From positions 1 to 35,841 of IMG/VR virus record IMGVR_UViG_3300045988_115891: a DNA stretch of 35,841 nt; one strand, 5' to 3'. The notes beneath the pieces were generated by a model that did not search any database, had not been told where the DNA came from, and was given only the letters and a program-made list of their open reading frames with translations. Below, in pieces: positions 1 through 24,890 of the stretch (position 1 is its first letter; the number at the start of each line of letters is the position of its first letter). The translations under genes and the position numbers were made by a program. The DNA comes from a virus.

Positions 1-55
1 AAGCTCCTGCGCTGTAAGTGTAACTCATAGGGTAACGGACAACGCCGCAGAAACG
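1..55. repeat. 55-bp terminal direct repeat, identical to 35787..35841 (circular-contig overlap)
   Basis: AAGCTCCTGCGCTGTAAGTGTAACTCATAGGGTAACGGACAACGCCGCAGAAACG occurs at both window ends. An ORF reads continuously across the junction. Confidence 0.95.
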
Positions 56-538
56 GCTATCCATTTCGAGACTTGAAACCTTGTCACGGAGAGCCTGTAT
101 CTCGTTGGTCTGAATGAGCGAACGAGTAGCCTCACCCTCTGCGTGAATTGCAGTAGTGATGTCGCAAGTCTGTCTGTCAATCTGCGCCGCAAGGTTTGCG
201 GTAGCAAGACGATTTTCGCAGCAGCAAGAAGCAAGCTGTTCTGAGAGATTTCTGCCCTCGGTTGTTACGTTTCTCTGCATTTCGTAGCCAAGATTGCAGA
301 TACCGTTACCGATATTAGTCAGGCGGTCGTTAATCTGTCCGAACTGCTGACCGAACAGAATTTCCTGCTGTGAAGCGGCTGTTGCGTACTGACCGAACTC
401 GCCCTGTCTGCCGAATCCGTTGCCGTTAAAGCCCCAGAAGAGGAACAGGAGAATGACCCACCATGCACCGTTACCACCGAATGCGCCGTCATTATCTTTT
501 GTAACGGCGGCGAGGTCTGATAAGCTGTAGTTATCCAT
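1..538 (-). CDS. 5' part of a 193-aa membrane protein with a Gly/Trp-rich N-terminal TM segment and a Cys-rich C-terminus. The gene wraps the window ends and continues at 35786..35743.
   Basis: ATG (complement 538..536) is preceded by AAAGGA. The frame is open to position 1 and it is missing from the ORF track because it runs off the edge. Hand translation: MDNYSLSDLAAVTKDNDGAFGGNGAWWVILLFLFWGFNGNGFG...ASCCCENRLA...FCGCNSCGCNNI, stop TGA at 35745..35743. Confidence 0.75.
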   Translation of the reverse strand, partial: MDNYSLSDLAAVTKDNDGAFGGNGAWWVILLFLFWGFNGNGFGRQGEFGQYATAASQQEILFGQQFGQINDRLTNIGNGICNLGYEMQRNVTTEGRNLSEQLASCCCENRLATANLAAQIDRQTCDITTAIHAEGEATRSLIQTNEIQALRDKVSSLEMDSRFCGVVRYPMSYTYSAGA

Positions 539-1346: not shown

Positions 1347-1598
1347 ATGAAAATTTACAGACTTCACGAAGCACAGGATAACACAAAGAACTACATCGTC
1401 CTCACAGATGGCGAGGGACTTGCAAAGATGATTGACTGGGATTTAAGCGAGGAAGAGGTTGAAGAGCTTGTTAAAGAGTTTGAGCAGGTCGGCGGTAGTC
1501 TTGAAAGCCGTGTAGAATGCGGTTGGATGGATGAAGATGATGTTTTCGGTGATACATTCGCTATAGAAGAACTTGGCTCAATCACGCAGTTAAAGTAA
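1347..1598 (+). CDS. hypothetical acidic early protein (83 aa)
   Basis: First ORF downstream of the consensus promoter. RBS AGAAAGGA is upstream of the ATG. Confidence 0.65.
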   Translation: MKIYRLHEAQDNTKNYIVLTDGEGLAKMIDWDLSEEEVEELVKEFEQVGGSLESRVECGWMDEDDVFGDTFAIEELGSITQLK

Positions 1599-1698
1599 GC
1601 TTGCTAACGCAGAACGACGCAGGGGCGAAAGCCCTTGTGGTAATGCGGCTAAGAACGGTCGTAAGCCCGTCAAGCAAGCATAAGAAAGGAGCGCTTTT

Positions 1699-2151
1699 AT
1701 GAGCGATAAGATGATATGCCTTGACTGCGGAACTGTATTTGACGCAAACGAGGTGGAAAGAGTACAGGAGTACCGTGGCGAGTGCTGGGGTCGCCCTGCA
1801 TACGAGGAAGAGTTGATATGCCCGCACTGCAAAAGCAGTGACATTGACGATGCAGAGGAGTGCGAAATCTGCGGCAGTTGGTGTTCGACAGAGGAACTGT
1901 ATGACAACGGCGGTCTTTGCACAGCTTGCCTTGAAACGTACAGCACAAATGAGGAGTGTTTCAAAGCGTGTGAGCGCAACAAAGACACGGAAAGCGTTGA
2001 GTTGAACTCTTACCTTGCGTATGTGTTCAGCGAGGACGAAATCGAGGACATACTGCTCGCAGAGCTGGCGAAGTCGGCAAACAGTACGACCGTTGCGAAG
2101 CTCCGTGAGGAGTTCGTCAAGGAAAACAGCTTCGTTTTCAGAAAGGGGTGA
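1699..2151 (+). CDS. zinc-ribbon (multi CxxC) protein, 150 aa
   Basis: RBS AAAGGAG. Motifs CLDCG...CPHC and CEICG...CTAC. Confidence 0.65.
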   Translation: MSDKMICLDCGTVFDANEVERVQEYRGECWGRPAYEEELICPHCKSSDIDDAEECEICGSWCSTEELYDNGGLCTACLETYSTNEECFKACERNKDTESVELNSYLAYVFSEDEIEDILLAELAKSANSTTVAKLREEFVKENSFVFRKG

Positions 2152-3766: not shown

Positions 3767-3994
3767 ATGGCAAGATATGTCACTAACTCATCGGACAAGA
3801 GTAAAGCAGTAACGCTTATACTCTGCCTGATACTCGGTCTGATAGGCGGTCACGACTTTTATCTTGGTAAAATCGGCAGTGGGCTTTTAAAGCTTTTCAC
3901 TTGCAATTTGTTTGGCATAGGTTGGTTCATCGACCTTATAAAAATAGCGACAGGCAGTTATTGTGATAATGTCGGCGCACCGATAAGAAAGTAA
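3767..3994 (+). CDS. TM2-domain membrane protein (75 aa)
   Basis: ATG at 3767 follows AAAGGAG; the track start at 3731 overlaps the previous gene. Two hydrophobic helices carry a GGHDFYLGK...GIGWFIDL pattern. Confidence 0.6.
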   Translation: MARYVTNSSDKSKAVTLILCLILGLIGGHDFYLGKIGSGLLKLFTCNLFGIGWFIDLIKIATGSYCDNVGAPIRK

Positions 3995-4029
3995 AAAAAC
4001 AACAACACGAAAAAAAGGAGTAAATTGGT

Positions 4030-4683
4030 ATGGCAACAACAAAAAAGGCAGAAGTAGTAGAGATTAAGCCTGTAGAGCTTAGAACAGTTATGTTAAAGAT
4101 AGTCGGCGACACGCCGCTGATAGTACACGCTTGGTCGGAGAAGGCAAAGCGTATGATGCTTGAAGCGCAGATGGGTCTTGCAAAGGGCAAGAAAAAGGAA
4201 GTCAAGAACCCTGTTGACGACTTTATCCAGTCGATGTACTGGCTGACCGACAAGCCCAAAGAAAGCACTGAGGAAGCTTTTATGCAGGCAATAAAGGGCG
4301 GAGCAAGGTTCGGCTTCCCTGCGACAGCGTTTAAGCAGTCGGCAATTTCAGCGGCATACAGGCTCGGATATGTTAAGGACAAGATGGGCTTAAGAGGAGC
4401 ATTCTTCATCAACGGCGATGAAAACGGTATGATTGAAATACATTCCGACACGCCGATTATGCGTGAGGATATGGTAAAAATCGGTATGGGTACAGCTGAC
4501 CTGCGTTATCGTGGCGAGTTCCGCAACTGGTGGGCTGAATTAAATATCAGCTACAATGCGAACGGCTCATTTTCGCTTGAAAACATTGTCAACATAATCA
4601 ACGCAGGAGGTTACGCTTGCGGTGTAGGTGAATGGCGTGTTGAAAAGGACGGTCAGAACGGTGCGTTTCACGTTGTAGGTTAA
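4030..4683 (+). CDS. conserved-looking phage protein of unknown function (217 aa)
   Basis: RBS AAGGAG and a non-repetitive globular sequence. I did not recognise any family. Confidence 0.6.
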   Translation: MATTKKAEVVEIKPVELRTVMLKIVGDTPLIVHAWSEKAKRMMLEAQMGLAKGKKKEVKNPVDDFIQSMYWLTDKPKESTEEAFMQAIKGGARFGFPATAFKQSAISAAYRLGYVKDKMGLRGAFFINGDENGMIEIHSDTPIMREDMVKIGMGTADLRYRGEFRNWWAELNISYNANGSFSLENIVNIINAGGYACGVGEWRVEKDGQNGAFHVVG

Positions 4684-4985
4684 TTTTTAGGTAGTCGTGG
4701 TTTGGCAGGTTAGGTGCGGCAAGGAGTGTTTGGGTGAGTTCCGTTAAGGCTCGGTTTGGCAGGTGGGGTTAGGCAAGGTGTGGCGAAGTTGGGTACGGTT
4801 TGGCAGGCATGGCAAGGCTCGTTCCGTTAAGGCTTGGCAAGGTTCGGCAGGTGGGGTCGGGTGAGGCAGGGTATGGCACGGAAAGGTTCGGCAGGTAAGG
4901 TCAGGTACGGTGAGGTCAGGTTGGGCATGGTGAGGCGGGCTCAGGTATGGCAGGCTCAGGTATGGCAGGCTTGGAAAGCCAAAAA
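4684..4985 (+). repeat. G+T-rich, C-poor degenerate repeat island (GGCAGG / GGCAAGG / AGGT motifs), non-coding
   Basis: I count 27 G vs 8 C in 4741..4800 and 28 G vs 8 C in 4861..4920, and 15 AGGT in total. GTTCCGTTAAGGCT occurs at 4738 and 4821. A 15-bp tandem GCTCAGGTATGGCAG occurs x2.3 at 4939..4971. Confidence 0.85.
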
Positions 4986-20850: not shown

Positions 20851-21477
20851 ATGGGAAAATTTACGGTTATACCGAAAGCCACGTTTGACGATTTACAGCT
20901 TGACGCAGGTGTGCTGCTGAGAAATTTCACTCCCGCAACAGCTGCTGCACCGCAGGATAGCGATATTATCTGCGCTACGACAGGCGGTATAAATGCGACT
21001 TGCACGCCGACTTACAGCGACTTAGGCGAGGACGTGGACAACTGCCCGAACAATATGAAGGAATTAAAGCACCTTGACGGTTGGGATTGCACGCTTGCTT
21101 TTACATCGCTCGGAATGAGTACAGCGGCAATAAAGATGGCACTCGGCAGTGCGGATATTGACACGCAGGACACGACAAAGGTCACACCGAGAAGAGATTT
21201 AAAGCAGTCTGACTTCTCGGACGTATGGTGGGTAGGAGATAAAGCTGACGGCGGTATGGTCGCTATACAGCTTAAAAACGCCCTCTCGACAGGCGGTTTT
21301 TCGTTACAGACAACCAAAAGCGGCAAGGGTCAGATTTCCGTTACGCTGACGGGTCATGTGTCGATTGACGCACAGACCGAAATGCCTATGGTGTTTTACT
21401 CGACAAGCGGTACAGCAGAAGCAACACAGGCTGACAGCGGTACTGACAGCGGAGCAGAAAGCGACCCTACAGTTTAA
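20851..21477 (+). CDS. major tail protein
   Basis: 208 aa, directly upstream of the frameshifted chaperone pair. RBS AAAGGA. Confidence 0.65.
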   Translation: MGKFTVIPKATFDDLQLDAGVLLRNFTPATAAAPQDSDIICATTGGINATCTPTYSDLGEDVDNCPNNMKELKHLDGWDCTLAFTSLGMSTAAIKMALGSADIDTQDTTKVTPRRDLKQSDFSDVWWVGDKADGGMVAIQLKNALSTGGFSLQTTKSGKGQISVTLTGHVSIDAQTEMPMVFYSTSGTAEATQADSGTDSGAESDPTV

Positions 21478-21500: not shown

Positions 21501-21869
21501 ATGAAATTATCAGACTTAACGACAGACAGGGCGGCAGACGTTCTTTGCGAGATAAGCATTTATCTTGTGAACATTACGACCGATGAGGAGTTAATGAACG
21601 AACTGAAAAAGCGGTTACAGCTGACAGGTCACGAAACTACTTTTGAAACGGTGGCAATTGCCGCAGAGAAGATGTCAAAAATTGCTCCTATCGTGCTGAA
21701 GAAGCATAAAGCTGACATTTTCGGAATCCTTGCCGCAGTGAATGGCAACACACCCGAAAAGGTAGCAAAGCAGAACATCATAAAAACAATGTCGCAGATA
21801 AAGGAACTTGTTAAGGACGAAGAACTGATAAGTTTTTTCAAGTCGTGCGTATCGCAGGAAACAGAGTAA
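21501..21869 (+). CDS. tail assembly chaperone (G-like, short product)
   Basis: RBS AGGAGG. It lies between the major tail and tape-measure genes and contains a slippery heptamer near its 3' end. Confidence 0.75.
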   Translation: MKLSDLTTDRAADVLCEISIYLVNITTDEELMNELKKRLQLTGHETTFETVAIAAEKMSKIAPIVLKKHKADIFGILAAVNGNTPEKVAKQNIIKTMSQIKELVKDEELISFFKSCVSQETE

Positions 21870-22147
21870 CTTCGGCTCTGCTCGATATGCCACGAAAGCT
21901 AAGCGTAAGGGGGCTGATTGCCGCAATGCCGATGATAATACAGCGGCAGAACGAGCAGTCAGCTTTTTGTAATTATATGGCTATGTGTGCGTTCAACGTG
22001 AATGAAATCGTTGCGAAAAGATACGGCGGAGCATATATGACAACGAAATATCACGATGTAATCAGCCCTCCGAAAGAGGAAAAACGCACAAGCGAAGAAG
22101 TCATAAACGGGATAAAGGAAAAGCTGAACGCACTCGGAGGTGATTAA
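21501..22147 (+). CDS. tail assembly chaperone G-T-like fusion made by a -1 programmed frameshift at 21833..21839
   Basis: The -1 frame is open from 21839 to the TAA at 22145..22147. The downstream ORF has no RBS of its own. Confidence 0.65.
21833..21839 (+). promoter_or_regulatory. -1 frameshift slippery heptamer U_UUU_UUC
   Basis: T TTT TTC is in the zero frame of 21501..21869 (codons AGT TTT TTC). Confidence 0.65.
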
Positions 22148-22649
22148 AATAAATTTATTTGAAATGTTTGTCAAAATCGGCGTTGACGACCAAGCAAGCG
22201 ATAAGATAAGCAAAATTTCTTCATCGCTGAAAAGTGGTCTTGCAAAGGCGGCTAAAGTTGGTGCGGCGGCTGTTACGGCGGCGGCTACGGCTATAGGTGT
22301 GCTTGCAAAGAAATCCCTTGATGCGTACGCCGATTTTGAGCAGCTGACGGGCGGTGTAGAAACGCTTTTTAAAACGTCTGCTGATACGGTAAAAAATTAT
22401 GCCGCAAACGCATACAAAACCGCAGGTTTATCAGCAAACGAATATATGGAAACTGTAACAAGTTTTTCCGCATCGCTGATACAATCCCTCGGCGGTGACA
22501 CGAAAAAAGCCGCTGAATATGCGAATACTGCGATAACCGATATGTCCGATAATGCGAACAAAATGGGTACGTCAATGGAGATGATTCAGAACGCATATCA
22601 GGGTTTCGCAAAGCAGAACTACACGATGCTTGACAACCTCAAACTGGGT
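22140..22649 (+). CDS. tail tape measure protein, exon 1
   Basis: The sequence ...NAYQGFAKQNYTMLDNLKLG ends at 22649. The 9 codons after it (RQKNMLLSA-stop) are intron sequence. The start is uncertain: GTG 22140 or ATG 22164. Confidence 0.8.
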
Positions 22650-22758
22650 AGACAAAAAAATATGCTTTTATCGGCATAACACCATTGCTCAGTATAAACC
22701 TTGTGAAAACGGTGAAACTCTTGCAAAGCAAGACAACACCGTGCAAAGTTTATTTTGC

Positions 22759-22787
22759 TTGACTTTCCGCCCGTAATATGTTAAAAT
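22759..22787 (+). promoter_or_regulatory. promoter TTGACT-17-TAAAAT inside the intron, upstream of the HNH ORF
   Basis: TTGACT 22759..22764, 17-bp spacer, TAAAAT 22782..22787. Confidence 0.55.
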
Positions 22788-22823
22788 AAAGTTAGCAAAT
22801 ACGAGGTGGAAAGGAAGAATAAA

Positions 22824-23327
22824 ATGTATTACAAAATTAAAGGTTTTGAAAATTACGGTATTAATCGAGATGGTGTTGTTTGCAACACAGATAATGGTGC
22901 CATCAAATCCCCTTATACAAACAAGTCAAACGGGTATTTGTATGTTGATTTATACAAGAGGAACAAGGCACACAAAAGACCGATTCACAGATTGATTGCA
23001 GAAACCTTTATCCCGAACCCCGAAAACAAACCGACCGTTGACCACATAAATGGCAACAGAACCGACAACCGAATTGAAAATTTGAGATGGGCAACATATA
23101 GTGAGCAAAACTCAAGATTTAACACGGTGGGAGTAAGAAGTGAAAAGGTTCTTGTCGTACACGAAAGTGGTAAAACAATGATGTTTGAAAAAATTACAGA
23201 TGTTGCCAACTATTTTGATTGCAATATAAGTAATATAAGCCAAATGCTTAAAAAAGGAACTTTTGGTAAGCGTGGAAAAACAAGGGGTTATAAATTTGAA
23301 TACATAAGGCAAAATAAAAATGTGTAA
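22824..23327 (+). CDS. HNH homing endonuclease (NUMOD4-like N-terminus plus HNH_3-type core)
   Basis: Motifs YKIKGFENYGINRDG... and VDHINGNRTDNRIENLRWAT. ATG at 22824 follows AAGGAAG; the track start (GTG at 22806) is less likely. Confidence 0.85.
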   Translation: MYYKIKGFENYGINRDGVVCNTDNGAIKSPYTNKSNGYLYVDLYKRNKAHKRPIHRLIAETFIPNPENKPTVDHINGNRTDNRIENLRWATYSEQNSRFNTVGVRSEKVLVVHESGKTMMFEKITDVANYFDCNISNISQMLKKGTFGKRGKTRGYKFEYIRQNKNV

Positions 23328-23483
23328 CGACTATCCCGAAAGGGAGTACAGCCAAGCGGCTGGAAGTGCAAGGCTCTGTTATCGGGAAACCGATAGCCAA
23401 AGAGATAGTCTGCTCTTTATGGTGACATAAAGCAGTTCATAAGAGAACGGGTACAGCGTAGCGAACTGTATCGAACATAAATG

Positions 23484-24890
23484 TATGGTGGCACTAAGGA
23501 AGAAATGGCTCGATTAATCGCTGACGCATCAAAAATGACCAATGTGCAAAAGGAACTTGGCGTAACGGTTGACGGTACGGATATGTCGTTTGCAAACATT
23601 GTAAACGCAATCCACGTTGTGCAAGCAAATCTTGACATTATGGGTACGACATCGAAAGAAGCGTCAACAACAATACAAGGCTCTATCAGCAGTATGAAGT
23701 CGGCGTGGGAAAATTTGCTTGTAGGCATAGCGGACGATAAGCAGGACTTCGGCAAGCTGATTGATAACTTTGTTGACAGCGTTGCAACGGTCGGTAAAAA
23801 CATAATGCCGAGGCTGAAGAAAATCCTTAAGGGAGTAGCAAAGCTAATAAAGGAAATCGTTCCCGAAGTGGCAAAAATGCTTCCCGAAATCGTAAACGAT
23901 ATTCTCCCCGACCTTGCAAATGCGGCGGTTGACATCGTTAAAGGGCTTGTTGACGCTTTAGTAGACAACGCAGACACGCTGTTAGATACCGGTATCAAAA
24001 TCCTTGACACGATAATCAACGGCATAATCGAATGTATACCAAAAATTAAAGATTTAATTCCCACGATTATAAACGCAATACTCCGCATAATTGATGTTTT
24101 AACAGAACACCTTGATGAGTTTATTGAGGGCGGTATACAGATAGCACTTGCGTTGTTAGACGGTATAATTCAAGCAGTACCGAAAATCCTTGAGAAGTTA
24201 CCCGAAATTTGCCAAAAAATAATTGACGGTGTTTTACAGGGCTTGTTCGGACTTGACGAAGGCGTGTCAAACACGTTCAGCACGGCTTTTGGGGGTGCCG
24301 TAGGTGGCGCGATTGAGATAATCAAGGGCATTTTATCGTTCTTAAACGGTGACTTTAGCACAGGACTTAAAAGTGCGGGCGAAGGTCTAAGCAATATTGT
24401 AGGCGGCGTTCTCGGAATCATTGACGGCTTGCTTGGAACAAGTTTGTCGCAATGGTATGACGATACAAGAGCATTTTTTAATCAATTTGGGCAGGATTTG
24501 TACAACATGACGCACCAGATGGAGCTTGCGAAACTTGAGGAAGGCGAACGTTTACAAGAGCAGACAAGCGGAGTAGGAATTACTGCAAACGAGTATATGC
24601 GACAGGGTTTAGCGGCGGCTGATGCTTTCGCAAAGGCTCTAAGCGATAAAGGCATAAACGAAGCGATATGGCAGGAAGCTGTTGAAAAGGGTATCGTCAC
24701 TTATGATGTAAACGAAGCGTACCAAACGTTAAAGGAGACAGGGCAGATAAAGACCGCAACAGCCGAAGGAACGTCAAATCAGATAAATGTGTCAATGAAA
24801 TTGCATAACGGTGTCGAGCTGGCAAGAGCGACAGCATATGATAATAGCAAGGCAAATCGTGTTGCGGGCAGGCAGATACCTGCGTACTAA
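23484..24890 (+). CDS. tail tape measure protein, exon 2
   Basis: It begins YGGTKEEMARLIADASKMT... in frame with exon 1 after splicing. The apparent ATG at 23481 consists of the last three intron nucleotides. The C-terminal part is repetitive and helical. Confidence 0.8.
   Translation, partial: YGGTKEEMARLIADASKMTNVQKELGVTVDGTDMSFANIVNAIHVVQANLDIMGTTSKEASTTIQGSISSMKSAWENLLVGIADDKQDFGKLIDNFVDSVATVGKNIMPRLKKILKGVAKLIKEIVPEVAKMLPEIVNDILPDLANAAVDIVKGLVDALVDNADTLLDTGIKILDTIINGIIECIPKIKDLIPTIINAILRIIDVLTEHLDEFIEGGIQIALALLDGIIQAVPKILEKLPEICQKIIDGVLQGLFGLDEGVSNTFSTAFGGAVGGAIEIIKGILSFLNGDFSTGLKSAGEGLSNIVGGVLGIIDGLLGTSLSQWYDDTRAFFNQFGQDLYNMTHQMELAKLEEGERLQEQTSGVGITANEYMRQGLAAADAFAKALSDKGINEAIWQEAVEKGIVTYDVNEAYQTLKETGQIKTATAEGTSNQINVSMKLHNGVELARATAYDNSKANRVAGRQIPAY

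Follow-up and report, generated by a model that had tools for sequence, protein, structure and literature searches.

An insert divides the tape-measure gene

We analyzed a stretch of viral DNA of 35,841 nucleotides (nt), IMG/VR virus record IMGVR_UViG_3300045988_115891, positions 1 to 35,841 (the window), with a focus on an insert in its tape-measure protein (TMP) gene. The list of open reading frames (ORFs) places two TMP ORFs, 22140..22679 (179 amino acids, aa) and 23481..24890 (469 aa), on either side of a third ORF at 22824..23327. An earlier reading made by a model from the letters alone (the sequence-only reading) had proposed that a group I intron with an HNH homing endonuclease splits the gene. 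We found that an 834-nt insert, 22650..23483 (+), divides the TMP gene, and that its excision joins 22649 to 23484 in frame, as that reading had claimed. The product is a 638-aa protein that reads ...NYTMLDNLKLG/YGGTKEEMARL... across 22649/23484 (here and below, a slash in a sequence marks the exon junction). PHROG tape-measure profiles match this product, and one of the matches (residues 15-215) crosses junction 170/171. The base before the insert, 22649, is T (U in RNA) and the last base of the insert, 23483, is G, both as previously read. The parts of the split gene are the following:

22140..22649 (+): TMP exon 1, 170 codons, ending ...CTG GGT (Leu-Gly); from the ORF list, the end of the tblastn exon high-scoring pair at 22649 and the alignment with contig L005
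22650..23483 (+): probable group I intron, 834 nt, phase 0, with omega-G at 23483; from the empty site, the family alignment and covariation
23484..24890 (+): TMP exon 2, starting TAT GGT GGC (Tyr-Gly-Gly), 468 codons plus stop

We conclude with high confidence that the insert at 22650..23483 is a mobile intron belonging to the phage IA (td-like) type of group I, located between a Gly and a Tyr codon of a siphovirus TMP. The original proposal of a group I intron with an HNH ORF is upheld by an empty site in contig L005, an uninterrupted junction in the relatives that lack the insert, a covarying core, Rfam matches of ORF-less relatives, and the similarity of the ORF to HNH_3 and I-HmuI.

To define the insert limits, we queried IMG/VR with 176 aa of the spliced TMP and examined the best 80 loci. 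The TMP junction was uninterrupted in 80 of the 80 best intron-less relatives (LKLG/YGGT in 76, LKIG in 3, and LQLG in 1), in agreement with the sequence-only reading, which gave this motif as contiguous and conserved in TP901-type tape-measure proteins. The closest intron-less contig, L005, belongs to a sibling phage with a TMP that is 90% identical to that of the window at the protein level. Its DNA aligns to window 22140..22649 and 23484..24890, and the two blocks abut at L005 2773/2774 with no gap; the intron-less site reads ...GACAACCTCAAACTGGGT/TATGGTGGCAC... Since this is an exact empty site, it fixes the insert limits as 22650..23483. The G+C content is about 36-37% across the insert (22550..23450) versus 43-48%, or about 44-46%, in the flanking exons, a dip that fits a horizontally acquired insert.

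For annotation, the two TMP coding sequences (CDSs) become a single spliced gene, join(22140..22649, 23484..24890), plus an intron-encoded endonuclease, and the TMP size to be used in tail-length estimates should be 638 aa.

Predicted structure of the intron RNA

We assigned the helices of the insert from its own sequence and fold, from covariation within the family of introns found at the same TMP site (described below), and from partial Rfam matches. The assigned elements are the following:

22643..22649 with 22687..22693 (+): P1, 7 bp (ACUGGGU with GCUCAGU), with U22649·G22687 at the 5' splice site
22661..22678 (+): P1-loop hairpin, lineage-specific, from the minimum free energy fold
22680..22685 (+): P10 guide CACCAU, pairing with 3' exon AUGGUG at 23485..23490, 6 bp, read from the sequence
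22699..22705 (+): 5' strand of P3, CCUUGUG, pairing with UGCAAGG at 23367..23373; columns 65/259 and 66/258 covary (UA, CG, AU)
22709..22714 with 22737..22742 (+): P4, from covariation, the fold and a partial Rfam match to model positions 60-139
22719..22723 with 22729..22733 (+): P5, from covariation and the fold
22743..22745 with 23321..23323 (+): P6, from the helix map of the window and its own fold
22749..22757 with 23310..23318 (+): P6a, 9 bp (UUUAUUUUG with CAAAAUAAA), the stem that closes the loop holding the endonuclease cassette
23329..23410 (+): 3' half of the catalytic core (P7, P7.1, P7.2, P3', P8, J8/7), from a partial Rfam match, covariation and the fold
23329..23334 with 23405..23410 (+): P7, GACUAU with AUAGUC, invariant in 29 of 29 rows
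23335..23344 (+): P7.1, GNRA hairpin CCC-GAAA-GGG, from its own sequence and the fold
23349..23353 with 23358..23362 (+): P7.2, every pair covaries
23380..23395 (+): P8, GNRA hairpin, every pair covaries in the family
23415..23421 with 23426..23432 (+): P9, with a GUGA loop; compensatory changes in 4 of 5 inner pairs, while the 2 outer pairs never vary
23435..23438 with 23445..23448 (+): P9.1, compensatory changes in 3 of 4 pairs
23450..23456 with 23466..23472 (+): P9.2, compensatory changes in 7 of 7 pairs

The guide, CACCAT-T-GCTCAG at 22680..22692, carries the strands of both P1 and P10. Its GCUCAG part pairs with exon CUGGGU (22644..22649), so that P1, described in the sequence-only reading as 6 bp with the U·G, extends to 7. 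There is no P2 between P1 and P3, and J1/3 reads UAUAAA. The two GNRA hairpins that had been noticed downstream of the endonuclease ORF correspond to P7.1 and P8. When the ORF is trimmed, the window RNA folds at -95.3 kcal/mol (z = -5.2), and the fold holds P1, the P1-loop hairpin, P4, P5, P6, P6a, P7.1, P7.2, P8, P9, and P9.2. The presence of P7.1 and P7.2 between P7 and P3', together with the identity of the 3' core to td-type introns, puts it among the phage introns of td-like IA type; the placement is at the level of IA (td-like), short of IA1, IA2 or IA3.

We assessed covariation in an alignment of 29 non-redundant representatives of the family (<93% identical), with ORF loops trimmed to 14 + 16 nt and with 10 and 12 nt of exon kept. 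From this alignment, RNAalifold predicts P1, P3, P4, P5, P6, P6a, P7.2, P8, P9, P9.1, and P9.2; we added the P7 pseudoknot before counting pairs. Standard pairs fill 98.5% of 1947 cells, and at 38 of the 68 pairs both partners change. Covariation scores 0.506, versus 0.181 ± 0.008 for shuffles (0 of 500 shuffles reach 0.506). As a control, sliding the partners by 1-3 columns lowers pairing to 28-41%. All six counted pairs of P6a covary.

The pairings at the splice sites were also followed across the family. The U·G at the P1 splice site is present in all 29 rows, with a compensatory change at column 7/54, and P1 forms 6 of 6 bp in 68 of 70 unique introns at the site. Exon and guide change together: CUCGGU occurs with GCCGAG, CUGGGU with GCUCAG or GCCCAG, and CUAGGU with GCCUAG or GCUUAG. 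P10, which had been read as 6 bp between CACCAU and AUGGUG and is so in the sequence, appears in the family as variants such as GCCAUA with UAUGGC and ACCGU with ACGGU.

Several points weigh against the interpretation as a splicing group I intron. P7, being invariant in 29 of 29 rows, is consistent with the structure but uninformative for covariation. The support for P10 is moderate, with a mean of 5.5 bp in the family versus 3.6 bp for shuffled guides when scored per sequence. MAFFT placed the P8 and P7.1 region of the window out of register, so window P8 is supported by its own sequence and fold, and because variable helices were out of register we excluded P7.1 and P10 from the column-based count. 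The register of P6a in ORF-containing rows depends on the loop-trimming rule. We infer splicing from the conserved structure and established group I chemistry, and cleavage by the endonuclease and use of its promoter are likewise proposed. Finally, a search of the whole window with Rfam gave no Intron_gpI (RF00028) match at the gathering score of 50 bits.

The Rfam scan of the insert, suggested as a check in the sequence-only reading, thus gave a mixed result. Under relaxed settings, there are partial Intron_gpI matches at 22709..22793 (part of P4-P6, 14.5 bits) and at 23207..23432 (3' core, 31.7 bits, E 5e-6), both below the gathering score. The score is low because the 570-nt ORF cassette splits the model match, and hence we do not count it as evidence against an intron. 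ORF-less introns at the same site do exceed the threshold: 69.4 bits in Streptococcus phage MissG1 and, in IMG/VR contigs, 65.7 (L146), 63.4 (L200), 62 (L133), 62 (L137), 59.5 (L098), 57.9 (L097), and 51.0 bits (L115). L115 (IMGVR_UViG_3300045988_106382) is a sibling phage with exons about 92% identical to the window in DNA. By blastn, its intron is 96-97% identical to nt 1-99 and 670-834 of the window intron, and 21 nt replace the intervening 570 nt. The window ribozyme is therefore essentially the L115 ribozyme plus an endonuclease cassette at 22749..23318.

A sub-threshold Rfam score would also fit a decayed intron or a defective prophage: the element would be a fossil whose ribozyme has lost the ability to splice, leaving the TMP gene in effect a pseudogene. 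The window P7.1, much shorter than in most relatives, could be taken the same way; however, the short P7.1 is common to the window and L115, which is above the Rfam threshold and to which the two ribozyme halves are nearly identical. In the window's own sequence, no core helix is broken. The exons both remain open and share about 88-92% DNA identity with those of sibling phages over about 1.9 kb, and the HNH ORF has its full length and keeps its HNH_3 domain intact. With helices, both exons, and ORF all intact, we consider decay very unlikely.

For an intein or a group II intron speaks the gene interruption and nothing further, and we give these negligible probability. An in-frame intein is excluded by the stop in the exon 1 frame at 22677..22679 and by the HNH ORF having its own start. 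Rfam returned no group II intron family at gathering score in the window and none in a scan of 22550..23600 at E<=10, no reverse-transcriptase ORF is present, and the group I fold rules out both kinds of element. Taken together, the P1 U·G, the omega-G, the P3-P9 core with its P3/P7 pseudoknot, and the restored reading frame support assignment of the TMP insert to the group I introns, for which self-splicing is predicted.

Endonuclease cassette

The loop of P6a holds nearly all of the endonuclease ORF and its candidate expression signals:

22749..23318 (+): endonuclease cassette in the P6a loop, with promoter, ribosome-binding site and nearly all of the ORF; delimited by blastn against L115
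22759..22787 (+): putative sigma-70-like promoter, TTGACT-17-TAAAAT with an upstream TG (extended -10), from a sequence scan
22824..23327 (+): predicted HNH homing-endonuclease ORF, 167 aa from ATG (alternative start 22806)

The last 9 nt of the ORF run to 23327, so that its last codons and stop overlap the 3' strand of P6a, P6, and J6/7. The earlier description of the ORF as HNH/NUMOD-type stands in its first half: Pfam HNH_3 scores 47.1 bits (cut-off 24.8), whereas NUMOD4 (18.7 bits) and the I-HmuI NUMOD-like domain (17.3 bits) fall below their Pfam cut-offs. The ORF also matches I-HmuI (1U3E) over residues 4-93 with E 1.1e-8 and a PHROG HNH endonuclease with E 4.8e-37, and it shares 45-69% aa identity with the ORFs that 38 other introns carry at the same TMP site. 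These similarities support its identification as an I-HmuI-like HNH homing endonuclease with predicted activity.

The scan located the TTGACT-17-TAAAAT promoter that the sequence-only reading had assigned to the endonuclease, and an AAGGAAG ribosome-binding site lies between it and the ORF, inside the cassette. The motif is equally placed in Lactococcus phage r1t. A strict version of the pattern matches 16 of 39 ORF-containing family members, which means either that the promoter is partially conserved or that the pattern is too strict.

A family of introns at one TMP site

A blastn search of deposited phages found a TMP/HNH/TMP layout in Lactococcus phages r1t (ORF40/41/42), proPhi7, 28201, 50901, and 62501, and likewise in Streptococcus phage Javan520. 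An ORF-less insert of 275 nt interrupts the TMP gene of MissG1, whose authors recorded it as non-coding RNA. We then searched for further members with a 23-nt pattern from the J1/3-P3-P4 region, GTATAAACCNNGTGAAAACGGTG, which is present in at least 120 IMG/VR contigs. Both exons could be placed in 78 of these, and all 78 have the same codon boundary, with the exon ending in GGT and the intron in G. We confirmed this boundary in r1t and five GenBank phages as well as in the 78 IMG/VR contigs, among which 68 introns are unique. About 30 of the 78 introns are ORF-less (mostly 269-341 nt; one assembly-gapped copy is 179 nt), about 45 carry an ORF and are 781-928 nt long, and one copy of 407 nt has a remnant of an ORF.

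The pattern also occurs in 16 bacterial genome contigs, where the match is at the level of the pattern. Those with a named taxon are all Firmicutes: Streptococcus, Ruminococcus, Clostridium, Anaerococcus, Pseudoramibacter, Eubacteriales, and a metagenome-assembled genome of Bacilli. The r1t-type family is thus widespread at one fixed site, in at least 78 viral contigs, with homologous sequence also in prophages of nameable Firmicutes genomes. Beyond this site, the 3' core of the window intron matches introns in 561 phage records (about 67-76% identity among the matches listed), including records annotated as thymidylate synthase plus homing endonuclease.

The ORF-less members bear on another explanation, that a free-standing HNH gene split the TMP into a gene in pieces, whose 179-aa and 469-aa polypeptides (the latter from ATG 23481) assemble without RNA splicing. 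That ATG is in frame just before exon 2, relatives are annotated in databases as two TMP CDSs, and such split genes are cited in Barth et al. 2023 (PMC10448857, its reference 8). A free-standing gene would nevertheless have no need of the covarying group I fold formed by the flanks of the ORF, ORF-less versions of the insert occupy the same site, and in many relatives the triplet before exon 2 is no start codon (...TAG/, ...AAG/, ...ACG/). We regard a gene in pieces as extremely unlikely and retain the group I intron.

Three allele states coexist in sibling phages: no intron (L005), an intron without an ORF (L115), and an intron with an ORF (the window). This series fits ongoing gain and loss of the intron, and it offers a clean natural set for homing studies. 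Contig L090 has the 407-nt intron at the same site (3804..4210), in which all of the HNH ORF except its 3' end is gone; what remains resembles the C-terminus of r1t ORF41. Judged by its sequence, this copy looks like a deletion derivative heading to the ORF-less state.

We note other interruptions upstream of the site. L115 has a second group-I-like intron at 4414..4727 (Rfam 39.6 bits, E 8e-9, below threshold), which splits the Met codon of ...YTM/LDN... and is separated from the intron at the TMP site described here by a micro-exon of 22 nt, GTTAGATAACCTCAAACTGGGT. Thirteen loci have an exon break at query residue 84, as in L115; the window lacks this upstream intron. In L094, L098, and L199, the TMP gene has a third interruption; it falls at query residue 59 (of 176 aa), about 100 nt further upstream, and the inserts are about 300 to 900 nt. 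From the positions of these breaks, this TMP family may have an intron hot spot in its conserved N-terminal part.

A stronger form of this idea is that the ...GFAKQNYTM LDNLKLG YGGT... stretch is a multi-intron hot spot (up to 3 positions in about 100 nt) where splicing efficiency times or doses full-length TMP and thereby tail assembly, as opposed to neutral parasitism. If so, the window intron, with its separately promoted endonuclease, would gate tail production. We view this stronger form as unlikely.

Comparison with known introns

The sequence-only reading had not recognized the insertion site. It is in fact the site of r1t ORF40/41/42 and of many other phages. r1t is cited in PMC4177764 as carrying a group I intron, with reference to van Sinderen et al. 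1996; our full-text literature search returned no primary description of the r1t intron, only this secondary citation in PMC4177764. The GenBank record of r1t has the TMP split likewise.

The r1t-type introns (r1t, proPhi7, 28201, 50901, 62501, and Javan520) resemble the window in host gene and boundary (...AAA CTG GGT/ ... G/TAT GGT GG...), in ribozyme homology, with every helix aligning, and in an ORF in the P6a loop. r1t itself also has the TTGACT-17-TAAAAT promoter and an HNH ORF (ORF41) that is 56% identical in aa. The ribozymes of r1t and the window share, in contrast, only about 57% identity in the trimmed alignment, and the window has an extra P1-loop hairpin, a much shorter P7.1 (CCC-GAAA-GGG), and a clearer 6-bp P10 guide. 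Megablast of half the window against deposited phages found no close relative, which indicates that the window phage is undeposited; it is related to human-gut Clostridia-type phages, unlike the dairy lactococcal r1t. The window intron is therefore a divergent gut-phage member of the old r1t-type family, at a site already known. It leaves the current understanding of group I introns unchanged, and its main value is for annotation.

The ORF-less introns of MissG1 and L115 share the site and the ribozyme family with the window and pass Rfam, as given above; they differ in having no 570-nt endonuclease cassette, and L115 differs further in its second group-I-like intron, 22 nt upstream. More distant likenesses are to the T4 td-type introns (subgroup IA2) and the SPO1/SP82 DNA polymerase introns (I-HmuI). 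Both have P7.1/P7.2 between P7 and P3' and an endonuclease ORF with its own promoter looped out from a peripheral stem. The window 3' core is about 69-76% identical, among the matches listed, to the thymidylate synthase introns of T4-like phages, and its ORF resembles I-HmuI of SPO1/SP82. I-TevI, the td endonuclease, is a GIY-YIG enzyme, and that of the window is HNH. Unlike in td and SPO1, the host gene is a structural tail gene and not one of nucleotide metabolism or replication, and the window intron differs from these comparison introns in lacking P2 between P1 and P3.

TMP has been called a frequently interrupted gene, the interruptions being homing-endonuclease genes (Barth et al. 2023, PMC10448857). 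The Vibrio phage ICP1 TMP is interrupted by an HNH-3 endonuclease gene, and its splicing was shown by RNA-seq and reverse-transcription PCR (PMC10448857). ICP1 thus resembles the window in having an HNH endonuclease gene within a TMP intron; it belongs to an unrelated lineage, and the comparison covers the gene and the endonuclease.

Proposed splicing and homing

We propose the following scheme. The late tail-gene transcript would fold into the ribozyme, and an exogenous guanosine in P7 would attack after U22649, which P1 would position through the U·G wobble with G22687. The released 5' exon, aligned to the 3' exon by P10, would then attack after the terminal G23483, and exon ligation would give the mRNA for the 638-aa TMP. 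On unspliced RNA, translation would end at the stop at 22677..22679 and give only the 179-aa fragment. Since translation without splicing stops at 22679, full-length TMP, and hence tails of normal length, would depend on splicing.

By analogy with I-HmuI, the HNH enzyme would nick or cut intron-less TMP alleles in related phages that co-infect the cell or are resident there. As the empty site is repaired, the intron would be copied into it, either together with the cassette or lacking it.

Other features of these phages

The TMP gene lies in a siphovirus tail module, in which the order is major tail protein (20851..21477), a pair of small overlapping ORFs, TMP, and genes for tail and tail-fibre-like proteins. 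The two small ORFs, 21501..21869 and 21845..22147 (+), lie where the tail assembly chaperone pair, made through a programmed frameshift, is usually encoded.

Elsewhere in the window, Rfam identified a Type-P5 twister ribozyme at 1608..1670 (+) with 48.1 bits (gathering score 37.6) and E 3.6e-7, between ORFs 1347..1598 and 1699..2151. A second twister-P5, with 56.5 bits, is at 7..63 (-) of L133, another contig of this group of phages with TMP introns. From these two matches, a self-cleaving twister ribozyme may recur in these phages.

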